IMG/VR virus record: IMGVR_UViG_3300007169_000025
Coordinates: 32,001 to 96,000 of that record
Length of the DNA stretch: 64,000 nt
Reading direction: 5' to 3' (one strand)
DNA from: a virus
Part shown: positions 5,746-33,572 of the stretch, piece after piece
Layout of the letters: the number at the start of each line of letters is the position of its first letter
Position numbering within the stretch: position 1 is the first letter of the stretch
The notes under the pieces: model-generated
What the model was told of the DNA's origin: nothing
Databases searched by the model: none
The model's input: the letters and a program-made list of their open reading frames with translations, nothing else
Made by a program: the position numbers and the translations under genes

Positions 5746-5750
5746 ACAGT

Positions 5751-5772
5751 TATTTATCGCAATAGATAAATA
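5751..5772. promoter_or_regulatory. Back-to-back divergent late promoters
   Basis: tatttatc (5751-5758, GATAAATA on the minus strand), then gcaata, then gataaata (5765-5772). Confidence 0.75.
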
Positions 5773-5779
5773 GTTTTAA

Positions 5780-5831
5780 CGGATAGACTAAAACGCAAGT
5801 TTTAGACAGGTGCATTGCACTTGACTGACCG
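5780..5831 (+). promoter_or_regulatory. Predicted three-way-junction 5' leader RNA
   Basis: P1 cggatag/ctgaccg, P2 ctaaaac-GCAA-gttttag, P3 caggtgc-att-gcacttg, with single-A linkers. It abuts the GGAG Shine-Dalgarno of the 5840 gene. Confidence 0.45.
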
Positions 5832-5839
5832 GAGAAGAG

Positions 5840-8265: not shown

Positions 8266-11200
8266 ATGGCAACAGCAATTCAGAGACGTGGTGGTACTAC
8301 TGCTGAACACGCAAACTTTACAGGTTTAGCAAGGGAAATCACGATTGATACAGATAAGAATACAGTTGTGGTTCATGACGGTACTACTGCTGGCGGACAT
8401 CCTTTGGCTACCGCAGCAGACCTTGCTAACATTTCAGGTACAGTAGGCAACATTGTAGCTGACATTACTAGTGTTATAGCAGGTAATGGTTTATCAGGTG
8501 GTGCAAACTCCGGCGACGCTAACTTAAACGTTGGCGCAGGTGATGGTATTACTGTAAACGCAGATAATGTTGCTGTAAATGTTGCGTTTGTTAGGAATCA
8601 GTTTAGTGCATCTTCACCCCTATCATATGATGCTGTAACCGGCGCTTTTAGCATTACTGAAGTTGGCGATATTAGTGCAGTAACAGCAGGCAATGGTTTA
8701 ACAGGTGGCGGCTCATCAGGAGCAGTCACACTAGATATTGGTTCGGGTTACGGTATTACTGTTTCTTCAGATGCAGTTGCAGTTAGTAACGTTGATGTTC
8801 GAGCATTGTTTAGTGCAGCAGGCGACCTAAGTTATAACGCCTCAACAGGTGTGTTTAGTTTTACAAATGATGCAGGTGATATCGAATCAGTTACCGCAGG
8901 TGACGGTCTAAGTGGCGGCGGAGCAAGCGGCGCAGTAACAATCAATGTTGTTGCTGGTCCCGGTATCGATGTTGGTGCTGATAACGTTGCAGTTAATACA
9001 GCCTTTATCAAAGGTATGTTTAGCGCAACTGACACGGGCGGTGATGGCAGCTTCAGCTACAGCAACGGCGTATTTACATATACCGGCCCAAGTCAAGCAG
9101 AAGCTAACGCTAGAATGGATGCATATCTAGTAGGTGGCGGCGGCCTAACATATACTAGCGGCACTTTTGCAGTTGGCGCAGGTACAGGTATTACTGTTAA
9201 TGCTGATGATGTAGCAGTTAATGCATCATATATTAAGAGCTTGTTTAGCGCAACTGATTCAGGCGGCGACGGGTCGTTCTCATATAACGACGGCGTATTT
9301 ACATACACTGGTCCAAGTCAAGCAGAAGCAAACTCACGTATTGATGCACGTCTAAGTGGCGGCACAGGTGTTTCTTATACATCAGGTGTTATTGCAATTG
9401 GTCAAGCAGTTGCTACAACTAGCAACGTTACATTTAATAATATTAATGCATCAGGTACAGTAACCATTGATGGTAACCTAGTTGTAAATGGCAATACTAC
9501 AACAATTAGCGCAACTAACTTAGCAATTGATGATAACCTAATTTACTTAAATTCTAATAGTACAATTACAAATCCAGATCTGGGCTTTGTTGGTAACTAT
9601 AACGACGGCACATATGCACACACTGGTGTGTTCCGTGATGCTACCGACGGCCGCTGGAAATTCTTTAAAGGATATGTTCCAGAGCCTGGTCAAACAATTG
9701 ATACTTCAAATAATACTTTCCAGTATGCTGATGTACAAGCCAACGTATTCTACGGCACATTCGTAGGTAATATTACAGGTAATATTAGCACACTTGGTAA
9801 CTTTACTACTACAGATTTAGCAGAAGGTACAAATTTATATTTTACCGCAGCAAGAGCCCGCGGCAACATCAGTGTTACTGATTCAGGCGGTGATGGTTCA
9901 CTCAGTTACGATAACAGTACTGGTGTAATCACATATACTGGCCCAAGTCAAGCAGAAGCAAACTCACGCATTGATGCACGTTTAAGTGGCACAAATGGTG
10001 TTAGCTACAGTAGTGGTGTAATCAGTCTAGCTAGCTCAACAGCAGGTTCAGGTTTAACATTTGCATCAGGTGTATTAGCAGTTGGTGCAGGTACAGGTAT
10101 TACTGTAAATGCTGACGATGTTGCACTAAGTGCATCAGGCGTAGCAGCAGGAACATATGGTAATGCTACAGCAGTAAGCCAAGTAGTAGTTGATACTTAT
10201 GGTCGCGTTACTAGCGCAAGTAACATTGCTATTACTCCAGCAGTAGGCTCTATTACTGGTTTAGGTACAGGTGTTGCAACATTCTTAGCAACACCTTCAA
10301 GTGCTAACCTAGCAGGTGCAGTTACAGACGAAACAGGCTCGGGTGCATTAGTATTTGCTAACAGCCCATCCCTAACAACACCAACATTGGGTGTGGCAAG
10401 TGCTACAAGCATTAACAAGGTTGCATTTACTGCTCCAGCAACTGGTGCAACACTAACACTAGCTGATGGTAGCACACTAGCAACCAACGGTGCGTTTGCA
10501 CTAACATTGACAACTACAGGTGCAAGTAATGTTACACTACCAACTAGTGGAACATTAGCAACACTAGCTGGTACTGAAACACTAACCAACAAAACAATTA
10601 ACGGTGCAAACAACACACTAACTGTTCGCATTGCTAACGATGTAAGTGGGTTAGGCACAGGTGTTGCAACTGCACTAGCAGTTAACACCGGCACAGCAGG
10701 TGCATTTGTTGTTAATGGCGGCGCATTAGGCACACCAAGCAGCGGTACATTAACTAACTGCACCGGCTTACCACTAGGGTCTGTCACAGGCCTAGGCACA
10801 GGCGTAGCAACATTCTTAGCAACACCTTCAAGTGCTAACCTAGCAAGTGCGGTTACAGATGAAACTGGCTCCGGCGCATTAGTATTTGGCACAAGTCCAA
10901 CCTTTACTACACAAATCAGTGTTCCTGTGATTGTTAAGACTGGTACTGACGGTGTTGGTGATATCGGACAGAGTGCTAATAAGTTTGCTACTGTTTATGC
11001 AACTACATTTAGCGGTACATCCACAACAGCAAAATACGCTGACTTGGCAGAAAAGTATTCAGCAGACGCAGATTACGAACCAGGTACAGTTCTACACTTT
11101 GGTGGTGAAGCAGAAGTTACACTATGCGACTCAGATATGTGCCGCAAGGTAGCAGGCGTTGTAACAACAGCACCAGCTCACTTGATGAACAGTGAACTAG

Positions 11201-11406
11201 AAGGCACAGCGGCAGCTATTGCGCTACAAGGTCGCGTACCTTGTAAGGTAGTAGGTCCAGTTGCTAAGGGTGACATGATGGTATCCGCAGGCAACGGTCG
11301 TGCTCGCGCAGAAGCAAACCCAGTAATGGGCTCTGTAATTGGTAAGTCACTAGAAAACTTTGATGGCGGCGAAGGCGTTATCGAAGTAGCAGTTGGTAGA
11401 CTATAA
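8266..11406 (+). CDS. Tail fibre protein (1046 aa) with Mtd_N-type N-terminus and YADLAE C-terminal domain
   Basis: N-terminal IQRRGGTTAEHANFTGLAREITIDTDKNTVVVHDG..GGHPL; repeats shared with the 970 gene; GATAAATA promoter at 8231-8238. Confidence 0.8.
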   Translation: MATAIQRRGGTTAEHANFTGLAREITIDTDKNTVVVHDGTTAGGHPLATAADLANISGTVGNIVADITSVIAGNGLSGGANSGDANLNVGAGDGITVNADNVAVNVAFVRNQFSASSPLSYDAVTGAFSITEVGDISAVTAGNGLTGGGSSGAVTLDIGSGYGITVSSDAVAVSNVDVRALFSAAGDLSYNASTGVFSFTNDAGDIESVTAGDGLSGGGASGAVTINVVAGPGIDVGADNVAVNTAFIKGMFSATDTGGDGSFSYSNGVFTYTGPSQAEANARMDAYLVGGGGLTYTSGTFAVGAGTGITVNADDVAVNASYIKSLFSATDSGGDGSFSYNDGVFTYTGPSQAEANSRIDARLSGGTGVSYTSGVIAIGQAVATTSNVTFNNINASGTVTIDGNLVVNGNTTTISATNLAIDDNLIYLNSNSTITNPDLGFVGNYNDGTYAHTGVFRDATDGRWKFFKGYVPEPGQTIDTSNNTFQYADVQANVFYGTFVGNITGNISTLGNFTTTDLAEGTNLYFTAARARGNISVTDSGGDGSLSYDNSTGVITYTGPSQAEANSRIDARLSGTNGVSYSSGVISLASSTAGSGLTFASGVLAVGAGTGITVNADDVALSASGVAAGTYGNATAVSQVVVDTYGRVTSASNIAITPAVGSITGLGTGVATFLATPSSANLAGAVTDETGSGALVFANSPSLTTPTLGVASATSINKVAFTAPATGATLTLADGSTLATNGAFALTLTTTGASNVTLPTSGTLATLAGTETLTNKTINGANNTLTVRIANDVSGLGTGVATALAVNTGTAGAFVVNGGALGTPSSGTLTNCTGLPLGSVTGLGTGVATFLATPSSANLASAVTDETGSGALVFGTSPTFTTQISVPVIVKTGTDGVGDIGQSANKFATVYATTFSGTSTTAKYADLAEKYSADADYEPGTVLHFGGEAEVTLCDSDMCRKVAGVVTTAPAHLMNSELEGTAAAIALQGRVPCKVVGPVAKGDMMVSAGNGRARAEANPVMGSVIGKSLENFDGGEGVIEVAVGRL
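10258..10888 (+). repeat. Intragenic direct repeat encoding GLGTGVATFLATPSSANLA.AVTDETGSGALVF (2 copies)
   Basis: Copies at about 10258-10357 and 10789-10888 share the identical core gcaacattcttagcaacaccttcaagtgctaacctagca. Confidence 0.85.
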
Positions 11407-11427
11407 TTTAATTTAAAATTAAACATT

Positions 11428-11454
11428 AAAAGGCTAGGTAACTAGCCTTTTTTT
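11428..11454 (+). terminator. Rho-independent terminator
   Basis: aaa-aggctag-gtaa-ctagcct-tttttt after the tail fibre gene. Confidence 0.85.
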
Positions 11455-11498
11455 GTGGCTTTTGTTTGTATAGTAATATAATGATTATTAGTCTTAAG

Positions 11499-11506
11499 TA
11501 TAAATA
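11499..11506 (+). promoter_or_regulatory. Canonical T4 late promoter TATAAATA upstream of the curli/cyclase operon
   Basis: Exact T4 gp55 consensus in the intergenic region after a terminator. Confidence 0.65.
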
Positions 11507-11574
11507 ATAGCGTAAGTACACATACAATTAACACACACCTTAAAAACAAATACTAACACAAAGGTGGTGTCCCC

Positions 11575-11856
11575 ATGGAACAGATTTTTCAGCTTATCGG
11601 TGAGGTAGGGTTCCCTATTGCCGGATCGTTGATTGCTGGCTATTTTATCTTTCTTAGCGTTAGTTACATTTTACAAGGTGTGACTAAACAGGTATTGGGT
11701 TTAAAAGGTATTATTACTGCATTAGATAATCGTGTCAAAACTATGAATAATGACATTATTCGCGTTGATATGACTATAAGCAATGTTATAGGACTTAAAC
11801 CTGATATTGACCGTATTGCGAGAGCAGACGGTAAGGTAGACGCAAGGAGAGATTAA
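11575..11856 (+). CDS. Small single-TM membrane protein (holin/YvrJ-like), paralog 1
   Basis: IGEVGFPIA hydrophobic N-terminus followed by the coiled coil LDNRVKTMNNDIIRVD. Confidence 0.55.
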   Translation: MEQIFQLIGEVGFPIAGSLIAGYFIFLSVSYILQGVTKQVLGLKGIITALDNRVKTMNNDIIRVDMTISNVIGLKPDIDRIARADGKVDARRD

Positions 11857-11857
11857 A

Positions 11858-12034
11858 ATGTTGTTTGTAGATTATGTGTTTTCATTAGTTGGCGATAATA
11901 TTTTAATGGATGCTGAGTTAACACCTCAGCACATTAAAGTAAAAGACGGCGACAAGTTTGAAGTAGTGATTAATAATAATCAAATTCTATTTAGAAAGAT
12001 AATCCAAGAGGTATCTTTAAATGGACGCGATTAA
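11858..12034 (+). CDS. Small hypothetical protein (58 aa, not in ORF track)
   Basis: MLFVDYVFSLVGDNILMDAELTPQHIKVKDGDKFEVV...; AAGGAG Shine-Dalgarno upstream; fills the gap between the two membrane paralogs. Confidence 0.65.
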   Translation: MLFVDYVFSLVGDNILMDAELTPQHIKVKDGDKFEVVINNNQILFRKIIQEVSLNGRD

Positions 12035-12326
12035 TTTAACACAGCTATCGGAAGTTATAAGCAAATATGGTTTCCCTATAGTATCTAGTGTACTTTTGTT
12101 ATATCTGGTATACTATATTTGGAAATACATTACAGAAAATATCACACCCACATTAATAGAAAGCAATGTGACTTTAGTTGCACTTATTGATAGAATTCGT
12201 ATGCTGGATAACGATATTATTCGTTTACAGCAAAAACTTGATACTGTTATTGTGTTGAGAGATATTGAAGAAATAAGGGAATCAGCACATGGGAAGCCGA
12301 CTAACAAAACTGAGAAAAATATTTGA
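12021..12326 (+). CDS. Small single-TM membrane protein (holin/YvrJ-like), paralog 2
   Basis: ISKYGFPIV TM segment plus LIDRIRMLDNDIIRL; clearly similar to the 11575 protein. Confidence 0.55.
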   Translation: MDAINLTQLSEVISKYGFPIVSSVLLLYLVYYIWKYITENITPTLIESNVTLVALIDRIRMLDNDIIRLQQKLDTVIVLRDIEEIRESAHGKPTNKTEKNI

Positions 12327-12369
12327 TTTTTCAAAGCTGAAAAAAATATTTAATCTGGGGAACAGACAC

Positions 12370-12510
12370 ATGAACATGAAATTAAAGATGGAAGTCTTAA
12401 AAGTATTTTTACTAGAGTTTGAATTATCTAGTGAAAAGAAACACAATGAGGAAGAAAAAAATGAGAGTAAAGAAGATCCTGCTCCTAAGCATCCTGGCGG
12501 CATTCAGTAG
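12370..12510 (+). CDS. Small hypothetical protein (start uncertain; ORF track gives 12289)
   Basis: MNMKLKMEVLKVFLLEFELSS... fills the gap before csgF and overlaps its start. Confidence 0.4.
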   Translation: MNMKLKMEVLKVFLLEFELSSEKKHNEEEKNESKEDPAPKHPGGIQ

Positions 12511-12928
12511 TGCGGCTTCGGCTTCCGAAATAGTTCATCAATTTAACAGCCCTGCTTTTAGTGGTATTGGATTCACACAACATGTGTTGAGCATCTATAA
12601 TCAAGAACAGGCAGCAAAACAAAAAATTAAAGATGAAAAAGCTCAAGCAGAGGCAAAAGCAGAATTAAAATTAATGCAAGATCCAATCTATCGTTTCAAG
12701 CAAGCTCTTGAAAGTAGAATGTATCAAGAACTTGCAAAACAGATTACTGATAATTTGTTTGGCGAAGGTGGAGTAACCGAAGGGTTAATTAACTTCCCAA
12801 CAGGCGGCAGTGTTGCATATAAAAAATTAGGCAATGAAATTGAACTTACAATTACAGATGCAAATGGTACTGTTACAGTTATTAAAGTTCCTGTAGCAAC
12901 AGTAATTAATGCATCAGGTGGTGGCTAA
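12461..12928 (+). CDS. csgF: Curli assembly component CsgF-like
   Basis: A signal peptide ending ASA is followed by SEIVHQFNSPAFSG (cf. CsgF mature N-terminus GTMTFQFRNPNFGG), then F..ALESR..QELAKQI and a C-terminal ITDANG.VTVIKVP. Confidence 0.85.
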   Translation: MRVKKILLLSILAAFSSAASASEIVHQFNSPAFSGIGFTQHVLSIYNQEQAAKQKIKDEKAQAEAKAELKLMQDPIYRFKQALESRMYQELAKQITDNLFGEGGVTEGLINFPTGGSVAYKKLGNEIELTITDANGTVTVIKVPVATVINASGGG

Positions 12929-12929
12929 T

Positions 12930-13847
12930 ATGAAAAAAATATCAATAGCATTACTAGCAAGTGTAAGTCTTGTATTGAGTGGATGTGCAAGTTATTCACA
13001 AATGGATAAGTTGTTTACTAAAACGCAATTTCAAGATGCAAAAATTGAACCCACAACGCTAGACCGTCCAGAGTTTGTGTTACCAAAGCCAGCTAACGGT
13101 CCTGTTGTGGTTGCAGTTTACAATTTCCTAGATAGGACCGGTCAGCGTAAGCCAAGTCCAATGGTTGCACAGTTAAGCAGCGCAGTTACACAAGGAGCTG
13201 AAACGTACTTAATGAAAGCACTTCAAGATGTGGGCGGCGGAGGCTGGTTTAAGGTTGTTGAACGTGTGGGCTTAGACAACTTAATGAAGGAACGTCAGAT
13301 GATTCGTCAGATGAGAGAAATCTATGACGGGCAAAATGCAAAACCATTACCACCAATGTTGTTTGCAGGTATCTTAGTAGAAGGTGGTATCGTAGGTTAT
13401 GATAGTAATATCATAACAGGCGGTAGCGGTATGCGTATACTAGGCATCGGACCACAAACACAGTATCAAGCAGACATGATTACAGTTAGTCTAAGAGTAG
13501 TAAGTGTTACAACTGGCGAAGTTTTAGTTAGTATCACAACTACAAAGACTGTATACAGTTACATGGATAAGTTAGGTGTACTACGATTTGTAGAAGCCGG
13601 TACTAAATCTATTGAAGCTGAAGTAGGTATGGGTGTAAATGAAAGCGCAAACAGAGCAACTAATATGGCTATTCAAGCCGCAGTAGTTGAAATGATTCGC
13701 GAAGGGCAGAGAAAAGGCTTCTGGGAGTATGATCCAAAATCTGTAGAGGAAATTGAACAAGCTCAAGCAGCTAAAAAGAAAGAAAAGAAAGTTGAGAAAA
13801 ATCTCAAAGTAGATAATGTTTTTGAAAAAGGAGAGCTAAATGACTAA
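12930..13847 (+). CDS. csgG: Curli secretion outer-membrane channel lipoprotein CsgG
   Basis: Lipobox LSGC; VAVYNFLDRTGQRKP, SSAVTQGA, WFKVVERVGLDNLMKERQMIR, EGGIVGYDSN and VSLRVVSVTTGEVL motifs. Confidence 0.93.
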   Translation: MKKISIALLASVSLVLSGCASYSQMDKLFTKTQFQDAKIEPTTLDRPEFVLPKPANGPVVVAVYNFLDRTGQRKPSPMVAQLSSAVTQGAETYLMKALQDVGGGGWFKVVERVGLDNLMKERQMIRQMREIYDGQNAKPLPPMLFAGILVEGGIVGYDSNIITGGSGMRILGIGPQTQYQADMITVSLRVVSVTTGEVLVSITTTKTVYSYMDKLGVLRFVEAGTKSIEAEVGMGVNESANRATNMAIQAAVVEMIREGQRKGFWEYDPKSVEEIEQAQAAKKKEKKVEKNLKVDNVFEKGELND

Positions 13848-14532
13848 GACATTTATGGGCTTAATGTTAAGCCTCGCGATGGCGTTGGGCTCTACTGGTG
13901 CATATGCTCAAGCAACTAGCACAACCAATAAAGTTTTTATTGATCAAGTTGGTAGTAGCAACACAGTTACATTAACACAAACTGGTAGCGGCAATAACAT
14001 TGGTGTAAGCGCCAGTGATTATGCAACTATCACCGGCAATAGCAATTCAGTAACAATGACCCAAACTGGCGATAACAATAAAGCCAATTATAAAATAACA
14101 GGTAATGGTAATACATATACTAGTGTAGTAACTGGTAATAGTAACGATATACTTGTAACTTGCGGTACTAGCAACGGTGCATGTACTGGTGTTACAATTG
14201 ATCAAAACATTCAAGGTAATACAAACAAACTAGTAGAAACAATCTCAGGTAGTGCTATTAGCAGCAAGACCAAGATTGTTGGTGGTTTAAACGACCTAGC
14301 ATACACATTAAGCAGCAGCAACGGTAAGTTAGATGTTGATATTGCTGGCGACAGCAACGTTATGCGTCATACACAAACTGGCGCCGCAGGTGTTAGCGGC
14401 CATGACCTAAAAGTAGTATTAACTGGTTCATTAAACCAAGTAACAACTACACAGGCAGGTACTATTGATACCACTGTGAACATTAAAATTAATGGTGGTA
14501 GTAACATCATCAATGTTACAACCAATAACTAA
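13840..14532 (+). CDS. Secreted curlin-repeat protein (CsgA/CsgB-like)
   Basis: Signal peptide (AYA) followed by N/Q/G/T-rich N-x5-Q-x-G repeats (NKVFIDQVGSSNTVTLTQTGSGNN). Confidence 0.75.
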   Translation: MTKTFMGLMLSLAMALGSTGAYAQATSTTNKVFIDQVGSSNTVTLTQTGSGNNIGVSASDYATITGNSNSVTMTQTGDNNKANYKITGNGNTYTSVVTGNSNDILVTCGTSNGACTGVTIDQNIQGNTNKLVETISGSAISSKTKIVGGLNDLAYTLSSSNGKLDVDIAGDSNVMRHTQTGAAGVSGHDLKVVLTGSLNQVTTTQAGTIDTTVNIKINGGSNIINVTTNN

Positions 14533-15608
14533 TGTTTCGTTGGTTTAACACACTAGTTTTTGCGTGTTTGATTAGTTCAGTGCCAGCTTGGGCTGAGATT
14601 GGTAAAATCTCAACTCAGGTTGGCCCTGACTCTTCTATTCAACGAGGCAAACAAATTATTGCTGGTAAACCTAATACAGGTATTGTGTCTAATGATACTG
14701 TTAGTACTCGTAAGGGTACAACACTAAACATTAATTTTAAAGATAATACAAAAGTAAAAATTACCGAAAACAGTCGTTTAGTAATAGACGACTTTGTTTA
14801 CGATCCAAAGAAAAGTGACGCTGGTAGATTAGCAATGAAGGTATCAATGGGTACTGTTCGTTATGCCAGCGGTCAGATTGCAAAAGTAAATCCTCAGCGT
14901 ATTAATATTAAAACGCCTAGTGCTGCAATTGCAGTTAGAGGTACAGATTTTCACATGACCGTCGACGAAGCAGGCAGAAGTCTAGTAGTACTAGTGCCTA
15001 GCTGCCGTGACGAGAATGAAGTTATTCGCAGCGATGAAGAAAAATTAATTAATTGCCAAACCGGTAAAATTATAGTAGAAAATGCAGCAGGATCTGTAGA
15101 ATTAACAGAACCATTCAGCGCCACATATGTGTCAAACTTTGATGCATCTCCGAGCGCAGCTATTATTTTAAAGCTAACAACAGTTGACCCTAGAATTAGT
15201 TTTGACAGTCAAGTTACTAATGATTTAATTATTAGTCCTCCTGAGGCAGTTCAGGAGCAAATGGCTAAAACTACAAAAGAAAATAATTTTGAGGAAGATG
15301 AAGAAGAAACGGTAACTAGAACCGCTAATGCAGACGCAGCTAAAAGCAAAAAAGAAGATTCTAAGGTAGTTGCTGTGACCACGTCTACTAGTACAAGCAA
15401 AACTTGTTCTGAGAAGATTATTTGCGTAGAAGTAAATCCATATGTAACTTTTTATAGAACTACTGATAGCGACCATTATGCTGAAGTAAGAGCAAGATTA
15501 AATTCTAATTTAACCTTAACTATAATTCATAACGGTGATGAGGGTAAGTTGGGTTGGGGACCTGCGCCTAACTCTGGTAATCAAGTAATTATTAGGCAGA
15601 GCAAATGA
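14532..15608 (+). CDS. Secreted FecR-domain protein
   Basis: Signal peptide (AWA); NDTVST..INFKDNTKVKITENSRLVID and IKTPSAAIAVRGTDF are FecR-domain hallmarks. Confidence 0.85.
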   Translation: MFRWFNTLVFACLISSVPAWAEIGKISTQVGPDSSIQRGKQIIAGKPNTGIVSNDTVSTRKGTTLNINFKDNTKVKITENSRLVIDDFVYDPKKSDAGRLAMKVSMGTVRYASGQIAKVNPQRINIKTPSAAIAVRGTDFHMTVDEAGRSLVVLVPSCRDENEVIRSDEEKLINCQTGKIIVENAAGSVELTEPFSATYVSNFDASPSAAIILKLTTVDPRISFDSQVTNDLIISPPEAVQEQMAKTTKENNFEEDEEETVTRTANADAAKSKKEDSKVVAVTTSTSTSKTCSEKIICVEVNPYVTFYRTTDSDHYAEVRARLNSNLTLTIIHNGDEGKLGWGPAPNSGNQVIIRQSK

Positions 15609-16999
15609 GAAAGATTTTAGCAGCACTATTGTTTTTCATAAGTGTGCCAGTAGCAGCACAAGAAGCTAACTTTGGTTTTGAAAATGGCAACTACACTAAC
15701 TGGACTGTTAGTAATGGCAGCACCACAGTAAAGACTGGTGGTTGGAGCAGTAACGGCTCAGGCGCACAAGTAACAACAGGTATGAGTAACTACTGCCCGG
15801 GCGGCGGCAAATGTTGGACAGTTACCCCTTATGGCACATACATGATGTCTATCCAAGCTGGTGGTGGTTCTCCAACGTTTGATAGCTCAATGTCAACTCT
15901 TGGATTTACCAGTGCCGAAACAACATCAATTAAAAATACCATTTACCAGAATGGTAACATGTACCCAACAAACGCTTCTTATGCTAGACGCAGTGTAGTA
16001 CTAGAAGCTGGCAAAACATATACCTATGCGTGGAACTACGTGAGTACAGACTATACTCCGTACAATGATGGGTCGATGGTGGTAGTTACTGGTCCTGCTG
16101 GTCCTGTTACAGTTAATGGTCAACAAAAATACGCACTACTAGGTTTTACTAATCCAGGAACCGGTAACTATTCAACTGGCAGCTATGGCTCAACAGGTTG
16201 GCAACAGATTGTTATTACAGTAAGTGTAACAGGCACTTACGACTTAGCATTTATATCTTTTAACTTAGGTGATACAGCACTAAGTCCAATTCTATTCATT
16301 GACGAAATTATAGGTGCTACCTTACTAAATGGCCAAACCTTTACATCAGTTCAACCAAACTCGGGAAGTACTGCCCCTCCACCACCTAGTGAACCAACCG
16401 TGCCAGAATATTGCTGCGGCGGCAGTGGTAGTTCGTTTAATGCCAGTACTGTTAATACAAATAAAGTTAACACATTCTCAAGTAGAACAGTAAAAGATTC
16501 TAAAGTTATTATTGAACAGATTGGTTCTAGTAATAGTATTACTATAACACAAAGTGGTACAAGAGAAAACTATTTCAAGTATTACAGCAGCGGCAATAAC
16601 AATACTACAACTGCTACACAAAGTGGCACAAATAATTCTGTAACTAATTACATGGACTTAACAGTTAACGGTAGCAGTAATAGTTTAACACTAAGTCAAA
16701 CTGGCACAGGCGGCGCAAAAGGAATCTTTGCTAGTGTGTCAAATAATAATAATACGCTAAATATCCTGCAAAAAGATGGTGGTAATCATTATCTGGATCT
16801 AGCATTAACCGGTGGTAGCAAATCTGTTACTGTCGTTCAAGAAGGAAGTGCAGGCCATATGGCTAAGATTGACTTGTCAGGCAACCCAACAAGTCTTAGC
16901 CTAACACAAGTTGGCGCTACACAAAACTTCTATTCAATAACTCACAGTTGTGCTACAGCAGGCGGCTGCGGCACAATTACAGTAACACAAGGACAATAA
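15605..16999 (+). CDS. Secreted protein: N-terminal beta-sandwich (carbohydrate-binding-like), Pro linker, C-terminal curlin repeats
   Basis: Signal peptide; NFGFENGNYTNW start; PPPPSEP linker; IEQIGSSNSITITQSG-type repeats; Cys pair near the end. Confidence 0.7.
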   Translation: MRKILAALLFFISVPVAAQEANFGFENGNYTNWTVSNGSTTVKTGGWSSNGSGAQVTTGMSNYCPGGGKCWTVTPYGTYMMSIQAGGGSPTFDSSMSTLGFTSAETTSIKNTIYQNGNMYPTNASYARRSVVLEAGKTYTYAWNYVSTDYTPYNDGSMVVVTGPAGPVTVNGQQKYALLGFTNPGTGNYSTGSYGSTGWQQIVITVSVTGTYDLAFISFNLGDTALSPILFIDEIIGATLLNGQTFTSVQPNSGSTAPPPPSEPTVPEYCCGGSGSSFNASTVNTNKVNTFSSRTVKDSKVIIEQIGSSNSITITQSGTRENYFKYYSSGNNNTTTATQSGTNNSVTNYMDLTVNGSSNSLTLSQTGTGGAKGIFASVSNNNNTLNILQKDGGNHYLDLALTGGSKSVTVVQEGSAGHMAKIDLSGNPTSLSLTQVGATQNFYSITHSCATAGGCGTITVTQGQ

Positions 17000-17000
17000 C

Positions 17001-19034
17001 ATGTTGAAGAAAATTTTACTAAGTCCATGGACTGCACTACTCACACTATTTTTAATTGTTGGACTAAGAGCAGTAGATCCTAGTTTTGTTGAAAGTGTAC
17101 GTCTTAGATATTTTGACACACTTATTACCAGCAAAGCGCCTACTCCTAATAACATCTATACAGTTAACATAGATGAAGCTGCACTAGACAAGTATGGTCA
17201 GTGGCCCTTTCCACGTGATCAGTATGCAGGCATTGTAAAAGACCTTTATGATAGGGGTGCAGGCTTAGTAGTATTCAATGTGTTAATGGCAGAGCCCGAT
17301 CGCTTCAAAGGCGACAAGGCCATGGAAGCAGCAATGCTACAGTATCCAGTTATACTACCAAATGTGCCATCGGACAAGTCAAAAAATAATCCTCGCGAAA
17401 CTGGTGCCGCAATTATGGGACCAGAGTATTTAGACACTGTGATTCAATATCCAGGTATCATTGCTAACTTGCCCAACTATGAAGGACTAGCAATTGGCAC
17501 AGGCACAGTTAATACACTACCAGAGATTGATGGCGTTAATCGCCGCGTACCATTAGTAGCCAGTGTAGACGGAACATTATATCCTGCACTAAGTTTAGAA
17601 GTACTTCGTGTTGTTGCAGGCGATCCTAGTTTTCAAATTAAGTTAAATGAACTAGGCGTAGAAAAAATGCGTATCCCTCAGTTTGGCCCAGTTACCACAG
17701 ACAGTTTAGGCCGTGTGTGGATTGATTGGAGCCAAAAGTCAAAGAGTGTAAGTTTAGCAGAACTTCCAAAAAGTTTTAACGGTGCTGTGGTATTTGTAAG
17801 TCCAACCGCAGCAGGTATTAGTAATCCGGTTCCTACAGCACTAGGACCAGTACACCCACATGAACTACAAGCAGCAGTAGTAGGCACTATGTTCAATGGT
17901 GTAAACATTCAGCGTGCTGATTGGTCTGATCTTGCAGAAGTAGGAGCATTGCTAGTGTTAGGCCTAATTATTATTTTACTATCAAGGTGGATATATGTTG
18001 GTCTTTTCACAACTGTTGTTGGGATCGCTGCCAGTGTTGGTGGCTCTTATTGGTTGTTTATTAACTACAACATGCTCACAGACGCAACGGCAACTGCTAT
18101 TGGTCTTGTTCTTGTTGCCTTGCACGTTTATGGCGTTAAGTTTGTAAGTGAGTTCTTACAGAAGCAACAGATTAAGAAACAGTTTGGCACATACCTAAGC
18201 CCAGACCTAGTAGCACAGCTACAGCGTCAGCCAGAGTTACTAAAGCTAGGTGGCACTGAGCAAGAACTAAGTATCATGTTCACAGACGTCCGTGGTTTCA
18301 CTACAATCTCAGAACACTATGGCAAAGATGTTCAGGGCTTGACAAGCATCATGAACCGTTATATGACTGCTATGACTAAAGCTATCCTAGAGAACAAGGG
18401 TACGCTAGACAAATATATCGGTGACGCACAGATGGCTTTCTGGAACGCACCAGTGAACAACTCACAACATGCTAAGGATGCTGTTCGTACAGCATTCCAA
18501 ATGTTAAAATCTCTAAAGGAATTTAATGATGAAATTAAAGCAGAAGGCGTACCAGCTTTTGGAATGGGCCTCGGTATTAATACTGATACTGTGGTTGTTG
18601 GTAATATGGGTAGCGATCAGCGTTTTGACTATACCTGTTTGGGCGACGGCGTTAACCTTGCTAGCCGCCTCGAAGGTCAAAGCAAACCTTACGGAGTTAA
18701 AATTATTATCGGACCCAAGACTGCTGACGCGGTTTTGGATACATACCAAGTAGTTGAGCTTGATTTAATTGCTGTTAAGGGTAAAACTGAACCAGCAAAG
18801 ATTTTTACAGTATTAGAAGAATTTAATAAACAAGACGAAAAAACACATAATCAATTCTTGCAAGAATACCGCGCAGGTAATTGGAATACAGCACAGAAAA
18901 TAGCTACAGACATGAGACACAGTTGGAAGGGCGAATTAGCACATTATTATGATGCTATGATTGATCGTATTTTAGAATACAAGAAAAGTCCTCCCAAGAA
19001 CTGGGACGGCATTTACAGAGCCACATCAAAATGA
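17001..19034 (+). CDS. CHASE2-domain class III adenylyl cyclase
   Basis: CHASE2 motifs (VNIDE..GQWPFPR, DGVNRRVPL), three TM helices, and cyclase motifs FTDVRGFT, DKYIGDA, VVGNMGS..RFDYT and GDGVNLASRLEG. Confidence 0.93.
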   Translation: MLKKILLSPWTALLTLFLIVGLRAVDPSFVESVRLRYFDTLITSKAPTPNNIYTVNIDEAALDKYGQWPFPRDQYAGIVKDLYDRGAGLVVFNVLMAEPDRFKGDKAMEAAMLQYPVILPNVPSDKSKNNPRETGAAIMGPEYLDTVIQYPGIIANLPNYEGLAIGTGTVNTLPEIDGVNRRVPLVASVDGTLYPALSLEVLRVVAGDPSFQIKLNELGVEKMRIPQFGPVTTDSLGRVWIDWSQKSKSVSLAELPKSFNGAVVFVSPTAAGISNPVPTALGPVHPHELQAAVVGTMFNGVNIQRADWSDLAEVGALLVLGLIIILLSRWIYVGLFTTVVGIAASVGGSYWLFINYNMLTDATATAIGLVLVALHVYGVKFVSEFLQKQQIKKQFGTYLSPDLVAQLQRQPELLKLGGTEQELSIMFTDVRGFTTISEHYGKDVQGLTSIMNRYMTAMTKAILENKGTLDKYIGDAQMAFWNAPVNNSQHAKDAVRTAFQMLKSLKEFNDEIKAEGVPAFGMGLGINTDTVVVGNMGSDQRFDYTCLGDGVNLASRLEGQSKPYGVKIIIGPKTADAVLDTYQVVELDLIAVKGKTEPAKIFTVLEEFNKQDEKTHNQFLQEYRAGNWNTAQKIATDMRHSWKGELAHYYDAMIDRILEYKKSPPKNWDGIYRATSK

Positions 19035-19219
19035 TCACACTGGAAACTAACAGTAGCGGAACTAGATTTGCTGTAGTAGCAAACGATAGATTATTGGTTT
19101 CAACAACTAATTATCTACATGCTTTAGAAGTTTACGAGCGGGCAAAAAACAATGATTTGTCTTTTGCAGAAACATTATTTGTTCCGTTTAATCCTCAGGA
19201 CGCCAAGATCTTAGTGTAA
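19031..19219 (+). CDS. Small hypothetical protein
   Basis: ATGA overlap with the cyclase stop codon; 62 aa. Confidence 0.4.
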   Translation: MITLETNSSGTRFAVVANDRLLVSTTNYLHALEVYERAKNNDLSFAETLFVPFNPQDAKILV

Positions 19220-19814
19220 TAAAAGTATTTTTGTAGTGTCGAAAATCTTTTATTAATTGTCTTGCATGAAATAGTTCAAGCGGTATGCTATCGGTGTAAT
19301 TTATCATAGGTAGATAATATCTGCTGACTATTTTTTCTAATCTTTTAATATCTATGCTTAATGCATCAACGATTTTATTGTTGTACTCTAGATCTTGAAG
19401 TAACGATAATAACCATACATGATATTCACTTTCAATATTATATGTTCGTGTTAATTCTCTAACTTCATAAAAAAGTGCTTTAACTGGATTTATACTAGGT
19501 CTGTATTTTGTTAGTACTGAAGGAAATTTAAAATCGCTAGATTCAGTCTCTAGCTGATTCATTGTGCTAACATAATCTTTTCTCAGCGCAATTTTTAAAC
19601 TATCTAAATTATTTTGTATTTTTCTTTCGTAGTCTTTAATAAGTGCGTTGGCAATTTTCTGATATCTAGGATTTAGTTTTTCGTAGTATTCTTGTTTAAT
19701 ATCATCGATAGAATATGCCCCTTCGAGCAAGTCAAACGGCAGCGTTTTTGTTTTATGATATTTTTCTAGTTCTTGCTGAATTCGCAGCAGAACAAAATCA
19801 ACGATGTCATCCAT
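19188..19814 (-). CDS. Hypothetical helical protein
   Basis: 208-aa ORF with an AATAAATA motif 5 nt upstream of the ATG. Confidence 0.65.
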   Translation of the reverse strand: MDDIVDFVLLRIQQELEKYHKTKTLPFDLLEGAYSIDDIKQEYYEKLNPRYQKIANALIKDYERKIQNNLDSLKIALRKDYVSTMNQLETESSDFKFPSVLTKYRPSINPVKALFYEVRELTRTYNIESEYHVWLLSLLQDLEYNNKIVDALSIDIKRLEKIVSRYYLPMINYTDSIPLELFHARQLIKDFRHYKNTFITLRSWRPED

Positions 19815-30782: not shown

Positions 30783-33572
30783 ATGGCAAGAACATTAGTA
30801 TCACCAGGCGTAAGTGTAAGCGTAACTGACGAAAGTTTCTACGCTCCAGCTGGTACTGGTACAGTTCCGCTAATAGTCATCGCAACAGCTCAAGACAAGA
30901 GCTCACCTGATGGCAGCGGAACAGCAGCATACACTACAGCCGCAGAAGCAGCTAACGTCAAGTTGATTACAAGTCAGCGTGACCTATTAACAAATTACGG
31001 CAACCCAATTTTCAAATCTTCGGGCGGCACAGCACTACATGGTCATGAATTAAACGAATATGGCCTACTAGCGGCATACAGTTTCCTAGGTATTGCAAAT
31101 CGTGCATATATCCTTCGCGCAGATATTGATCTAGATCAGTTAGCCGCAAGCTCAGTTGCACCATCAGGCGATCCAGCAGACGGCACTTATTGGTTAGACT
31201 CATCTTCAACAATTTGGGGTCTAAAGCGTTGGAGTGGTACTGCATGGGTACGCCAGACAGTTAAAATACCAGCAGTTGCAGATTTAGCAGCAGGTAACGT
31301 TCCTAAAACAGCATATGGTGTTAACGGTGATTATGCTGTAGTTTACTTTACAACAACAGGCGCAACTGCACCAACAATTAAATTCTATCATAAGATTGGC
31401 GGTCAGTGGTATCACATTGGTTCAACTGCATGGGACTCAGCATCAAGCGCCGATTTCCAAGAAGCTAGTTATTTAGATCTTCCAGGAACTCGCAGCGGCG
31501 GCGGCAGTTTGGTTGCCGGCGACCTAATGCTACAAAAAGAACCACAAAATAATGGTACAACATTAAGCGTTAAAGTATATGATTCAGCTTCCGGACAATT
31601 TACTGCTGAAGACGTTGTAATTAGAGACCTTTCATATCAGGCTCTAACCGCTTACAACATGAATCCACCTACAGGTGCTTTATGGGCAGATACCGTAACA
31701 GGTGAAGCAACATTAAGATTGAAGCGTTGGAACGGCGAAGGTACTGTTACCGCTACACCAACTTCAGCAGCCGCTGCTAATGCGGTTGTACTAGCTAACC
31801 ATGCTAACAAGATATCACTAGCATTTACATTTGGTGATGGTACACCAGTTAATGTTACATTTACAAGCGGTAACGTTAATGCTACAGTTGACGATATGGT
31901 TACTGATATCAATAATGCTATTAGCGGTGCTAATGCTACACTTTCAAGAACCAGTACTGCAATTGCAGCTAATGTTAGCGGTTTACTAACAATTACTAAT
32001 ACTAGCGGTTTTGATATCGTACTCAGCGCAGGTAACGTTGCAGGTTTTGATCCAACAGATCTAAACTTCCTCACCGACTTGCCATATTCAAACTGGGAAT
32101 CGTTAAGCTATGAAGTTAGTGCATCTGAATTAACAGGTGATACTGCTAACGGAACTTTATGGTACGACGACAATATTACTCCTGAAAACATCGACTTATT
32201 ATATAATAATGCCGGTACTTGGACAACATTTAATGTTGACATTCAGGTAACACCAACAGAACCAACTACACGATCAAACGGAGTATCTGCATTGACCGGT
32301 GATGAAGTTTGGATTGACAGTAGCGACTTAGAAAACTTCCCAAAGATTTATATTTGGGATGGCGGCGCCGATGAATGGGTCCTTGTTGACAACACTGATC
32401 AGGTAACTGATATGGGTGTAGTTTTTGCTGATTTCCGTGCAGATGCAAACAGTCCAATTGACGCAGATGCTCCATCAGCAGCTGAATATCCAAATCTAAT
32501 TTTAGGTTGGAATACTCGTGCTAGTGGCGGTAACGTCAAGCAGTGGGTAGTTGGCCATACACATGAAGGTGTATTGGTTGGCGACCGTTGGGTAAATTAC
32601 AGTGGCAATAAGAGCAACGGTGCTCCTCATATGCTACGCAAAGCACAACGTCGCGCAGTTGTAAAACAAATGCAGGCTGCTATTACTAGCAACACTGACA
32701 TTCGTAACGAAGTAAATCGTTTCAATCTAATTGCAGCACCTGGATATCCAGAGCTACTAGATGAAATGATTAGCTTGAATGTGGATCGTAAGGAAACAGC
32801 ATTTATTGTTGCTGATGCTCCTCTACGTTTAGCAGCAAGTTCAACAGCAACTCAAGCATGGGCAACTAACTCAAATAATGCAGAAGAAAATGGTGAAGAC
32901 GGTCTAGTAAGCAGCAATGCTTATGCGGCAGTATATTATCCACATGGCTTAACAACAAACCTAGACGGTACAAACGTTGTTGTTCCAGCAAGTCACATTG
33001 CACTACGCACACTTGCTTATAACGATAATGTTGCTTTCCCATGGTTCGCACCAGCTGGCTTCCAGCGCGGTATTGTAACTAATGCAACAGGCTTAGGTTA
33101 CATTAATTCTGCAACAGCAGAGTTTGTGAGCGTTGCACTAAGCGAAGGTCAAAGAGATAGCTTGTATATCAACAAGCTCAACCCAATCAGCAACTTCCCA
33201 GGAAGAGGTATTGCTGTGTTTGGTCAGAAGACTCTAAACCCAAGCGCAAGTGCATTGGATCGTATTAACGTAGCACGTCTAGTTGTTTACATTCGTGAAC
33301 GCTTAGACGATATCGTTAAGCCATTCTTGTTTGAACCAAACGATGAAGTTACACGTCAGAACGCTAAGGTTGTAGTTGACCGTTTCCTAGGTCAGCTAGT
33401 AACACAGCGTGGCTTGTTTGACTTCCTAACAGTTTGTGATACAACAAACAACACACCTGCAAGAATTGACCGCAATGAACTACACATTGATGTTGCCATT
33501 CAGCCAATTAAGGCAGTTGAGTTTATCTATATTCCAATTCGTATCCAGAACACACTTGGTACAACTGGTTAA
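30783..33572 (+). CDS. Tail sheath protein (gp18-like)
   Basis: LVSPGVSV, PWFAPAG..RG, GQKTL, ALDRINVARL, FEPND and EFIYIP motifs. Confidence 0.95.
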   Translation: MARTLVSPGVSVSVTDESFYAPAGTGTVPLIVIATAQDKSSPDGSGTAAYTTAAEAANVKLITSQRDLLTNYGNPIFKSSGGTALHGHELNEYGLLAAYSFLGIANRAYILRADIDLDQLAASSVAPSGDPADGTYWLDSSSTIWGLKRWSGTAWVRQTVKIPAVADLAAGNVPKTAYGVNGDYAVVYFTTTGATAPTIKFYHKIGGQWYHIGSTAWDSASSADFQEASYLDLPGTRSGGGSLVAGDLMLQKEPQNNGTTLSVKVYDSASGQFTAEDVVIRDLSYQALTAYNMNPPTGALWADTVTGEATLRLKRWNGEGTVTATPTSAAAANAVVLANHANKISLAFTFGDGTPVNVTFTSGNVNATVDDMVTDINNAISGANATLSRTSTAIAANVSGLLTITNTSGFDIVLSAGNVAGFDPTDLNFLTDLPYSNWESLSYEVSASELTGDTANGTLWYDDNITPENIDLLYNNAGTWTTFNVDIQVTPTEPTTRSNGVSALTGDEVWIDSSDLENFPKIYIWDGGADEWVLVDNTDQVTDMGVVFADFRADANSPIDADAPSAAEYPNLILGWNTRASGGNVKQWVVGHTHEGVLVGDRWVNYSGNKSNGAPHMLRKAQRRAVVKQMQAAITSNTDIRNEVNRFNLIAAPGYPELLDEMISLNVDRKETAFIVADAPLRLAASSTATQAWATNSNNAEENGEDGLVSSNAYAAVYYPHGLTTNLDGTNVVVPASHIALRTLAYNDNVAFPWFAPAGFQRGIVTNATGLGYINSATAEFVSVALSEGQRDSLYINKLNPISNFPGRGIAVFGQKTLNPSASALDRINVARLVVYIRERLDDIVKPFLFEPNDEVTRQNAKVVVDRFLGQLVTQRGLFDFLTVCDTTNNTPARIDRNELHIDVAIQPIKAVEFIYIPIRIQNTLGTTG

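Follow-up and report, generated by a model that had tools for sequence, protein, structure and literature searches.

The DNA described here is a 64-kb window (64,000 nucleotides, positions 32,001 to 96,000) of the viral record IMGVR_UViG_3300007169_000025, a 104-kb IMG/VR record with a CheckV completeness of 28%. Between 11.4 and 19.2 kb of this window lie ten close-packed open reading frames (ORFs), all on the plus strand, among them homologues of the curli proteins CsgF and CsgG, two proteins with curlin repeats (Cur1 and Cur2), a FecR-domain protein and a CHASE2 adenylate cyclase, with three small ORFs (sm1 to sm3) in front of them (Table 1). Judging from protein similarity and gene order, we are almost certain that the six larger genes are a copy of the curli module (type VIII secretion, T8SS) already published for viruses. 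An earlier sequence-only reading of the window had described them as intact and tightly packed on one strand, and both the ORF list and Pfam bear this out. All six expected families (CsgF, CsgG, Curlin_rpt, FecR, CHASE2 and Guanylate_cyc) were matched above the curated Pfam cut-offs, by which the window's protein families were assigned, and in the ORF table neighbours among the six genes either overlap by 1-8 nt or stand one nucleotide apart. Such overlaps of stop and start codons suggest translational coupling. The signal peptides, lipobox and cyclase catalytic residues that the same reading had called intact proved so in the translations and, for the cyclase, in an alignment to a solved structure (below). 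Sec-type signal peptides can be read in CsgF (ASA/SE), Cur1 (AYA/QA), the FecR-domain protein (AWA/EI) and Cur2 (VAA/QE), and CsgG has the lipobox L-S-G-C, whose Cys is invariant in 81 of 81 viral homologues. Because of these signals, the five proteins other than the cyclase are placed outside the cytoplasm.

Table 1. Features of the curli-type module and of the DNA directly upstream, in window coordinates
Feature	Position	Strand	Evidence or remark
Tail-fibre gene, 1046 aa	8266-11406		Mtd_N domain (Pfam); directly upstream of the module
Terminator-like hairpin + T-run (intrinsic type)	11428..11458	+	Read in the sequence; closes the tail-fibre gene 8266-11406
Late-type promoter-like motif TATAAATA, core ATAAATA	11499..11506	+	75 nt 5' of sm1, the first gene of the module
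sm1, 93 aa, predicted single-pass membrane + coiled-coil protein, first module gene	11575..11856	+	phrog_18771
sm2, 58-aa ORF between sm1 and sm3	11858..12034	+	Conserved in close relatives
sm3, 101 aa, sm1 paralogue	12021..12326	+	phrog_18771
CsgF homologue, signal peptide	12461..12928	+	Pfam PF10614, 1.7e-18, profile positions 3-132 of 132
CsgG outer-membrane lipoprotein channel homologue	12930..13847 (alternative start 12909)	+	Pfam PF03783, 9.4e-49
Cur1, predicted secreted, curlin repeats only	13840..14532	+	Pfam Curlin_rpt, 2.1e-5
FecR-domain protein, predicted secreted	14532..15608	+	Pfam PF04773, 4.5e-12
Cur2, CBM-like head + proline-rich linker + β-solenoid (model)	15605..16999	+	Pfam Curlin_rpt, 2.7e-6, C-terminal third
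CHASE2 class III adenylate cyclase	17001..19034	+	Pfam CHASE2, 3e-36; Guanylate_cyc, 7.4e-20
62-aa ORF overlapping the cyclase stop codon	19031..19219	+	Conserved in close relatives

The co-conservation of the six genes, on which the sequence-only reading had staked itself, holds across the viruses surveyed. A profile-seeded scan of IMG/VR gave 549 stretches encoding a relative of CsgG, of which the best 80 were taken, and 52 of these had enough flanking DNA to be scored. CsgF, CsgG, Cur1 and the FecR-domain protein are present in all 52 viral loci, the cyclase in 50 and the second curlin in 49, and the FecR gene lies between two curlin genes in every one of them. Eleven close IMG/VR relatives carry the whole unit in unchanged order, with CsgG 70-94% identical to that of the window. 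In pairwise comparison with four relatives, the ratio of nonsynonymous to synonymous substitution rates (dN/dS) is 0.03-0.13 for all six genes. Myo-, podo- and jumbo-phage lineages have the genes in one and the same order, with differing genes on the flanks.

Megablast of the module DNA against a collection of phage isolates gave no match, so that protein-level searches were needed. A search of the isolates with the CsgG protein recovered Pelagibacter phage HTVC008M and four Methylophilales Melnitz phages, in which the annotated order is CsgF, CsgG, a curlin-associated protein, a FecR-domain or hypothetical protein, a curlin-repeat or hypothetical protein and an adenylate/guanylate cyclase. 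The six window proteins are 28-47% identical to their counterparts in HTVC008M and Melnitz, where the module adjoins replication genes. The sequence-only reading had mentioned csgF and csgG homologues in some T4-like marine phages, usually without recognisable curlins; the first part stands with these isolates, and the second does not, since their records annotate curlin-repeat proteins and CsgA/B-like genes have been described in such modules (PMC9599517). Taking the pelagiphage T8SS more widely (HTVC008M, pelagimyophage metagenome-assembled genomes (MAGs), HTVC023P-type podophages and Melnitz), the order (small genes)-csgF-csgG-curlin-fecR-curlin-cyclase is common to it and the window, the homologous proteins are 28-62% identical when the small genes are included, and CsgE, CsgC and CsgD are absent from both. 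The window differs from the pelagiphage systems in its carrier, which is of a PA5oct/Atu_ph07/Phosso-like jumbo lineage, in its freshwater, river, reservoir and estuary habitat, and in the head of Cur2, which has no BLAST match to the HTVC008M or Melnitz heads.

Much about the viral module is already on record. Zaragoza-Solas et al. (2020) described a 'curli operon' in pelagimyophages, together with freshwater pelagimyophages that do not have it (PMC7029224). Wittmers et al. (2022) reported the module in full, with CsgA/B-like fibre genes, FecR and adenylate cyclase, from pelagiphages of the podo- and the myo-type alike and from each of the 65 GOV2 stations, where it makes up ~0.1% of assembled viral proteins; ocean metatranscriptomes match the viral curli genes, and podophage modules often have no cyclase (PMC9599517). 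New here are the freshwater jumbo-phage lineage, the architecture of Cur2, the membership of sm1 and sm3, the bacterial context and the placement of ATAAATA motifs.

As for the carrier, there are genes in the window for a tail sheath and a sheath stabiliser, for virion proteins, and for a large terminase and a UvsX-like recombinase. The large terminase is nearest (57%) to that of the group of the ~287-kb Pseudomonas phage PA5oct, followed by Sinorhizobium phage Phosso and Agrobacterium phage Atu_ph07, and related module-bearing IMG/VR contigs reach 163-357 kb. DNA of the window was found in river, reservoir, freshwater, 'aquatic' and estuary metagenomes of six studies (55-71% of sampled words). 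Judged by these genes and habitats, the carrier is a freshwater jumbo myophage. Two other assignments were tried: a classical T4-like or Kyanoviridae phage was rejected on the large terminase, which is closest to PA5oct-type jumbo phages, and an oceanic Pelagibacter-infecting myo- or podophage agrees neither with that terminase nor with the freshwater, river, reservoir and estuary metagenomes.

We compared the phage module with bacterial loci from both of its sides, and the sequence-only reading had proposed this synteny check. The nearest bacterial CsgG proteins are alphaproteobacterial, 44-50% identical; the nearest loci, from Azospirillum, Glaciecola and Rickettsiales MAGs, have CsgF and sometimes curlins, and no FecR, cyclase or sm gene was found within 10 kb. 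Homologues of the cyclase (33-43% identity) occur in 84 of 201 sampled alphaproteobacterial genomes, and among the 20 best CHASE2-cyclase loci four have a FecR-domain gene nearby and none has CsgG or curlin genes. The combined order is thus found in phages, and the nearest bacterial CsgG and CHASE2-cyclase loci hold one half only: among the loci examined, the curli half and the FecR/cyclase half are combined only in phages. The phage module has the appearance of an alphaproteobacterial-type curli locus fused to a sensor pair of the FecR/CHASE2 kind, in agreement with PMC9599517. Some contigs filed under bacterial MAGs (L015-L017, L027 and L029) also carry the module, and tblastn of the other ORFs of the window against them gave no match. 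L029 was rejected as bacterial, being a podophage contig with terminase and portal genes, and L015-L017 and L027 were not counted as bacterial because they are short or have nothing but genes of unknown function on them. L027, a 50-kb contig from a Legionellales MAG (PBLX01000006.1), is rearranged: CsgG, curlin, FecR, curlin, two extra ORFs and cyclase, with sm3 and sm1 after the cyclase on the opposite strand and flanking ORFs that have no PHROG match.

Compared with bacterial curli systems (E. coli csgBAC-csgDEFG and the alphaproteobacterial csg loci), the phage module shares the CsgG channel, CsgF, Sec-exported substrates of the QxGxxN type and a CsgA-like solenoid. It differs in having no CsgE, CsgC or CsgD, in an altered constriction, in one substrate with a large globular head, and in embedding FecR, the CHASE2 cyclase and sm1/sm3, which were not seen in the bacterial CsgG loci examined. 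Residues 51-271 of the phage CsgG align to the E. coli CsgG structures 3x2r and 4uv3 (2.4e-47), and in these alignments the E. coli constriction residues Y51, N55 and F56 are replaced by S, Q and L. Across the 81 viral CsgGs, a hydrophobic residue (L, F or I) occupies the F56 position and small or polar residues the two other constriction positions. The csgF gene lies directly upstream of csgG and has an AGGAAG ribosome-binding site 6 nt 5' of its ATG at 12461. A search of CsgF against solved structures by sequence alone gave no real match. The N-terminus of the mature protein reads ..HQFNSPAFSG.., which resembles what we take to be the CsgG-binding segment of E. coli CsgF, FxFxNPxFGG. No csgE or csgC had been recognised in the sequence-only reading, and none was matched in the 104-kb record. 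CsgE is reportedly also absent from many non-gammaproteobacterial curli loci, a point ascribed to Dueholm et al. in 2012. As the sequences read, the parts of a minimal curli pathway, CsgE and CsgC excepted, are all present, carry export signals and are under constraint.

Of the two predicted substrates, Cur1 consists of ~12 xxGxxN half-repeats spaced roughly 11 residues apart. Fold modelling of the curlins was done for Cur2 only. Its AlphaFold2 model (predicted local distance difference test score, pLDDT, 88) has a β-sandwich head (aa 20-260), a proline-rich linker (262-295) and a 14-strand β-solenoid (299-463). Among structures with real sequence identity to the solenoid, it is matched best by CsgA of Pontibacter (8c50: Z 14.5, 23% identity) and by the CsgA fibril of E. 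coli (8enq: Z 13.4, 22% identity). For the head, matches were obtained to the carbohydrate-binding module (CBM) TmCBM61 (Foldseek E 4.6e-4, TM score 0.63) as well as to CBM16, CBM4 and a porphyran-binding CBM (Z 8.8-9.6, VIA). The second curlin had been called 'lectin-like' from its sequence, and the model supports this, with a head resembling β-sandwiches of the CBM61/CBM4/CBM16 type and a tail resembling CsgA. An exhaustive search found the head and the curlin tail independently of each other. The head recurs (E <= 1e-48) inside bacterial proteins of 1,100-2,700 aa bearing Big_9/cadherin repeats, as in adhesins of the type I secretion system, and in one ESPR/PATR autotransporter, an adhesin of the type V secretion system kind, which indicates that it belongs to surface adhesins. 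Curlin tails in other viral proteins are fused to other heads of various sizes, one with a PA14 domain. On the model, Cur2 is a modular display protein. Because its head and tail are modular and the head is common to bacterial adhesins, this predicted architecture speaks for the role of an adhesin or coat rather than for a bare pore.

The FecR-domain protein has its signal peptide at the N-terminus, no anti-sigma domain, and a C-terminal region of ~140 aa that has Cys pairs conserved in it; across 52 homologues, C158/C175 and C292/C298 do not vary. For this C-terminal region Pfam gave only noise at E <= 10, and the AlphaFold2 model of the protein, built on a 52-sequence alignment, is poor (mean pLDDT 60). 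An iron-type anti-sigma factor as in FecIRA was rejected on the grounds that the signal peptide is cleavable, the FecR domain is the sole match and no partner genes occur among the ORFs of the module. The FecR of FecIRA shares only the periplasmic FecR domain PF04773 with the phage protein, which has a signal peptide instead of a cytoplasmic anti-sigma domain and membrane anchor, and the module has no extracytoplasmic function (ECF) sigma factor or TonB-dependent transducer. Since anti-sigma domain, anchor and FecIRA partners are all missing, the name 'FecR' is no sign of iron regulation here. Weak NCBIfam matches, far below the cut-offs, were seen to the Leptospira surface adhesins and lipoproteins Lsa33, LipL45 and Lsa19, from which FecR domains appear to occur in surface-exposed binding proteins too.

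The cyclase is predicted to consist of a transmembrane helix, a periplasmic CHASE2 domain, further transmembrane helices and a catalytic domain of class III (IIIb-like), with hydrophobic segments at ~aa 4-22, 317-335 and 358-385. It aligns to Pseudomonas aeruginosa CyaB (PDB 3r5g) at 3.3e-31 and also to cyanobacterial cyclases. The CyaB alignment places the metal-binding residues at D429 and D475, the substrate residue at K471, the IIIb-type Thr at T545, and the transition-state Asn and Arg at N552 and R556; the 56 viral homologues show no variation at D429, K471, D475 and R556. By these residues the active site is intact and of the ATP-type class III. In roughly half of these 56 enzymes, Asp takes the place of Thr545 and Ser that of Asn552, variation that may reflect IIIa-like and IIIb-like subtypes or a shift in the alignment. 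Pairs of a secreted FecR-domain protein and a CHASE2 membrane receptor encoded side by side are known from bacteria, as in the phage: a LysM-FecR protein adjoins a CHASE2 kinase in the Burkholderia biofilm-switch operon (BiofilmReg, PMC5192318), and in S. meliloti cyaD1 adjoins smc02177 (PMC5498481). CyaD1 likewise has a class III adenylate cyclase as its output. The phage arrangement differs from these pairs in the curlin gene between the partners and in having neither LysM nor a response regulator.

The small proteins sm1 and sm3 are paralogous to each other; in each, a coiled-coil-like stretch comes after a single hydrophobic segment. Their main match is to phrog_18771, which has no known function (3.9e-27 for sm1, 3.2e-24 for sm3), with weaker ones to the holin family phrog_4898 (2.7e-4 and 8e-4); the module has no endolysin. 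Neither has a Pfam match better than E 0.1 or any NCBIfam match, and the Atlas neighbours of sm1 are viral only. At the equivalent position sm1 is 62% identical to its Melnitz counterpart, which makes it the best-conserved protein of the unit, and 46% identical to that of HTVC008M; sm3 shares 43-45% identity with the second of the small proteins in Melnitz and HTVC008M. Homologues of sm1 and sm3 lie immediately 5' of csgF in HTVC008M, in Melnitz and in L029, the podophage contig, and 21 of 52 viral loci have them at the start of the module. By position and homology, sm1 and sm3 belong to the unit in this lineage. They are probably, from their position, the genes preceding csgF that are labelled 'histidine kinase' in PMC9599517. 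We rejected this label because the two proteins, of 93-101 aa, have no HisKA or HATPase_c domain and no Pfam or NCBIfam match. Between them, sm2 is 42-84% identical in the close relatives L004-L013 (dN/dS 0.12-0.22), has no family match in Pfam or NCBIfam and was not found in HTVC008M or Melnitz. The region 11575-12326 is mosaic: the sm1 protein is 100% identical in L004 and ~52% identical in L005-L013, in contrast to CsgF through the cyclase, which are 80-92% identical in all of L004-L013. This pattern suggests recombination at the sm3/csgF junction.

With regard to expression, the sequence-only reading had named TATAAATA upstream of the module as a canonical late promoter, and this did not hold. 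The 8-mer occurs once in the 64 kb, and 7.7 copies are expected from shuffles, so that the motif alone is not above chance and was rejected as a canonical T4 late promoter. For its core, ATAAATA, the intergenic DNA (4.6 kb, 7% of the window) holds 8 of the 20 copies (binomial P = 4e-5), and these intergenic copies lie 12-120 nt 5' of the tail sheath gene, of other structural genes and of sm1. Given this placement and the terminator-like hairpin before the module (which a computed search also scored on the minus strand), a late, structural-gene-like expression of the module is plausible. Short contigs of parts of Cur1, the FecR-domain gene, Cur2 and the cyclase, 93-100% identical, were found in two freshwater metatranscriptome runs of different studies; these are Logan contigs, which give presence only and not strand, level or timing, with uncovered parts uninformative and DNA carry-over possible.

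We lean, by a modest measure, towards reading the locus as a secreted curli-type coat together with a FecR/CHASE2 sensing pair. Most of the function so proposed (adhesin, aggregation, exclusion, lysis timing) is already in the literature (PMC7029224, PMC9004378, PMC9599517): 'sibling capture' or macromolecule uptake was put forward for pelagimyophages (PMC7029224), and superinfection defence, aggregation or sibling capture, import and recombination were discussed by Wittmers et al. (PMC9599517). In such a scheme the unit would be transcribed late from an ATAAATA-type promoter, CsgG and CsgF would insert in the host outer membrane and form a channel, and Cur1 and Cur2 would be exported through it unfolded. 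Cur1 would then polymerise on the cell surface into an amyloid-type fibre, which the curlin tail of Cur2 would join or seed, displaying its putative glycan-binding head. The infected cell would thereby gain a sticky or shielding coat leading to aggregation with neighbours or particles, or to masking of receptors. The FecR-domain protein and CHASE2 would form a periplasmic sensing pair, as in the bacterial FecR/CHASE2 operons, that sets the cytoplasmic level of cyclic AMP (cAMP). For the step of fibre formation by the module, we consider the chances evenly balanced.

Several points weigh against a coat with a sensing pair. OM43 cells infected with Melnitz were not clumped in cytograms or by transmission electron microscopy (Buchholz et al., PMC9004378), and the literature searched gave no experimental test of the idea, with no measured fibre, secretion or cAMP for the phage copies. 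The constriction of the phage CsgG (S/Q/L) is unlike that of E. coli (Y/N/F), and no equivalents of CsgE (PF10627), CsgC (PF10610) or CsgH were found in the 104-kb record, which is a genome fragment. The Curlin_rpt matches are modest, and in NCBIfam Cur1 and Cur2, which score slightly higher with the CsgB than with the CsgA model, stay far under the equivalog cut-offs (19.6 and 24 bits against 165). The 240-aa head of Cur2, with its Cys pair, would have to pass a ~1-nm channel unfolded. On the side of the cell interior, a search of the 104-kb fragment for a cAMP receptor (cNMP_binding) found none, a result that shows nothing because the record is ~28% of the genome. The RNA evidence, finally, is limited to contigs.

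Some of these same points bear on the best-surviving alternative, in which the CsgG/CsgF pore has been repurposed as an ungated channel or as a secretin- or pinholin-like device for lysis timing or macromolecule uptake, with sm1 and sm3 as holin-like partners and curlins that form no fibres. Both versions are already published, uptake in PMC7029224 and a pinholin- or secretin-like role in lysis timing by Buchholz et al. (2022; PMC9004378). The lack of clumping during Melnitz infection (PMC9004378), the missing periplasmic gate CsgE, the departure from the E. coli constriction residues, and the weak matches to the holin family phrog_4898 (2.7e-4 and 8e-4) by proteins that lead the module are all in its favour. 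However, a bare pore leaves unexplained why strong purifying selection maintains two Sec-exported curlins, one of them adhesin-headed, in 49-52 of 52 loci, and why CsgF is retained. An outer-membrane pore, moreover, cannot depolarise the inner membrane, and the holin matches are weak in proteins detected in just 21 of 52 loci. We regard a repurposed pore as fairly unlikely.

Another alternative is that two separate functions travel together, the FecR/CHASE2 part being a host-manipulating cAMP generator and the curli part an unrelated surface module. This would fit the bacterial loci, where the nearest CsgG genes have no FecR or cyclase within 10 kb and neither CsgG nor curlin accompanies the cyclase in the 20 best alphaproteobacterial CHASE2-cyclase loci, and it would fit the absence of the cyclase from 2 of 52 viral loci and, frequently, from podophage modules (PMC9599517). 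It sits poorly with the position of FecR between the curlin genes in every locus, with a cyclase that comes next in 50 of 52, with an order kept across myo-, podo- and jumbo-phages despite differing flanks, and with overlapping stop and start codons that suggest translational coupling. Two independent functions are, in our estimate, unlikely. That the curlin-like proteins are virion parts (fibres or decoration proteins), as the place of the module between the 1046-aa Mtd_N tail-fibre gene and tail/neck genes and the frequency of β-solenoids and CBM-like heads in phage fibres (tailspikes are among the structure matches) might hint, is very improbable, because the cleavable Sec signal peptides of Cur1 and Cur2 would take them out of the cytoplasm, where virions assemble; in HTVC008M and Melnitz, besides, the module is beside replication genes, and the curlins are always linked to CsgG and CsgF.

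Returning to the coat with a sensing pair, a more specific form of it would make the module a self-contained, phage-delivered system of amyloid display with feedback. Here the curlin tails may be a universal anchor for interchangeable binding heads, and the β-rich FecR-domain protein may bind curlin that is unexported or misassembled in the periplasm, replacing CsgE and CsgC. By relaying that state to the CHASE2 cyclase, the FecR-domain protein may make cAMP a readout of envelope or fibre status, and cAMP in turn may gate a late decision, for example the timing of lysis via holin-like sm1 and sm3. That all of these steps hold jointly seems to us quite improbable. If true, it would give a CHASE2/FecR pair its first proposed ligand logic, and phages their first system in which second-messenger control is tied to surface amyloid.

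Among the multi-gene accessory units of aquatic phages, the viral curli module ranks with the largest and most widespread, and it would provide infected cells with a surface structure beyond their hosts' own making. Its occurrence in a freshwater jumbo lineage argues for transfer as a block among very different phages and habitats, and for a benefit that is not specific to SAR11. The adhesin-type head on a curlin tail, as modelled in Cur2, is the most concrete support so far for adhesion or coating over a bare pore, and the compact phage version of FecR/CHASE2 is attractive for finding the ligand of a recurring bacterial sensor.

A few minor features of the locus and its surroundings complete the description. 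An Rfam scan of 11000-19500 gave a chance-level match alone, and the idea of a regulatory RNA in the gap between sm3 and csgF (12327-12460) was dropped because the gap is not conserved beyond the ribosome-binding site. The 62-aa ORF that overlaps the cyclase stop codon has no family match in Pfam or NCBIfam, is 46-74% identical in close relatives (dN/dS 0.10-0.25) and is possibly the last gene of the unit. In the divergent intergenic region 5746-5839, ATAAATA occurs at 5751 (minus) and 5766 (plus), each copy before a gene, which suggests back-to-back late-type promoters. The tail-fibre-like protein encoded upstream of the module has, besides Mtd_N (major tropism determinant N-terminal), long Gly/Ser/Thr-rich repeats in its interior.

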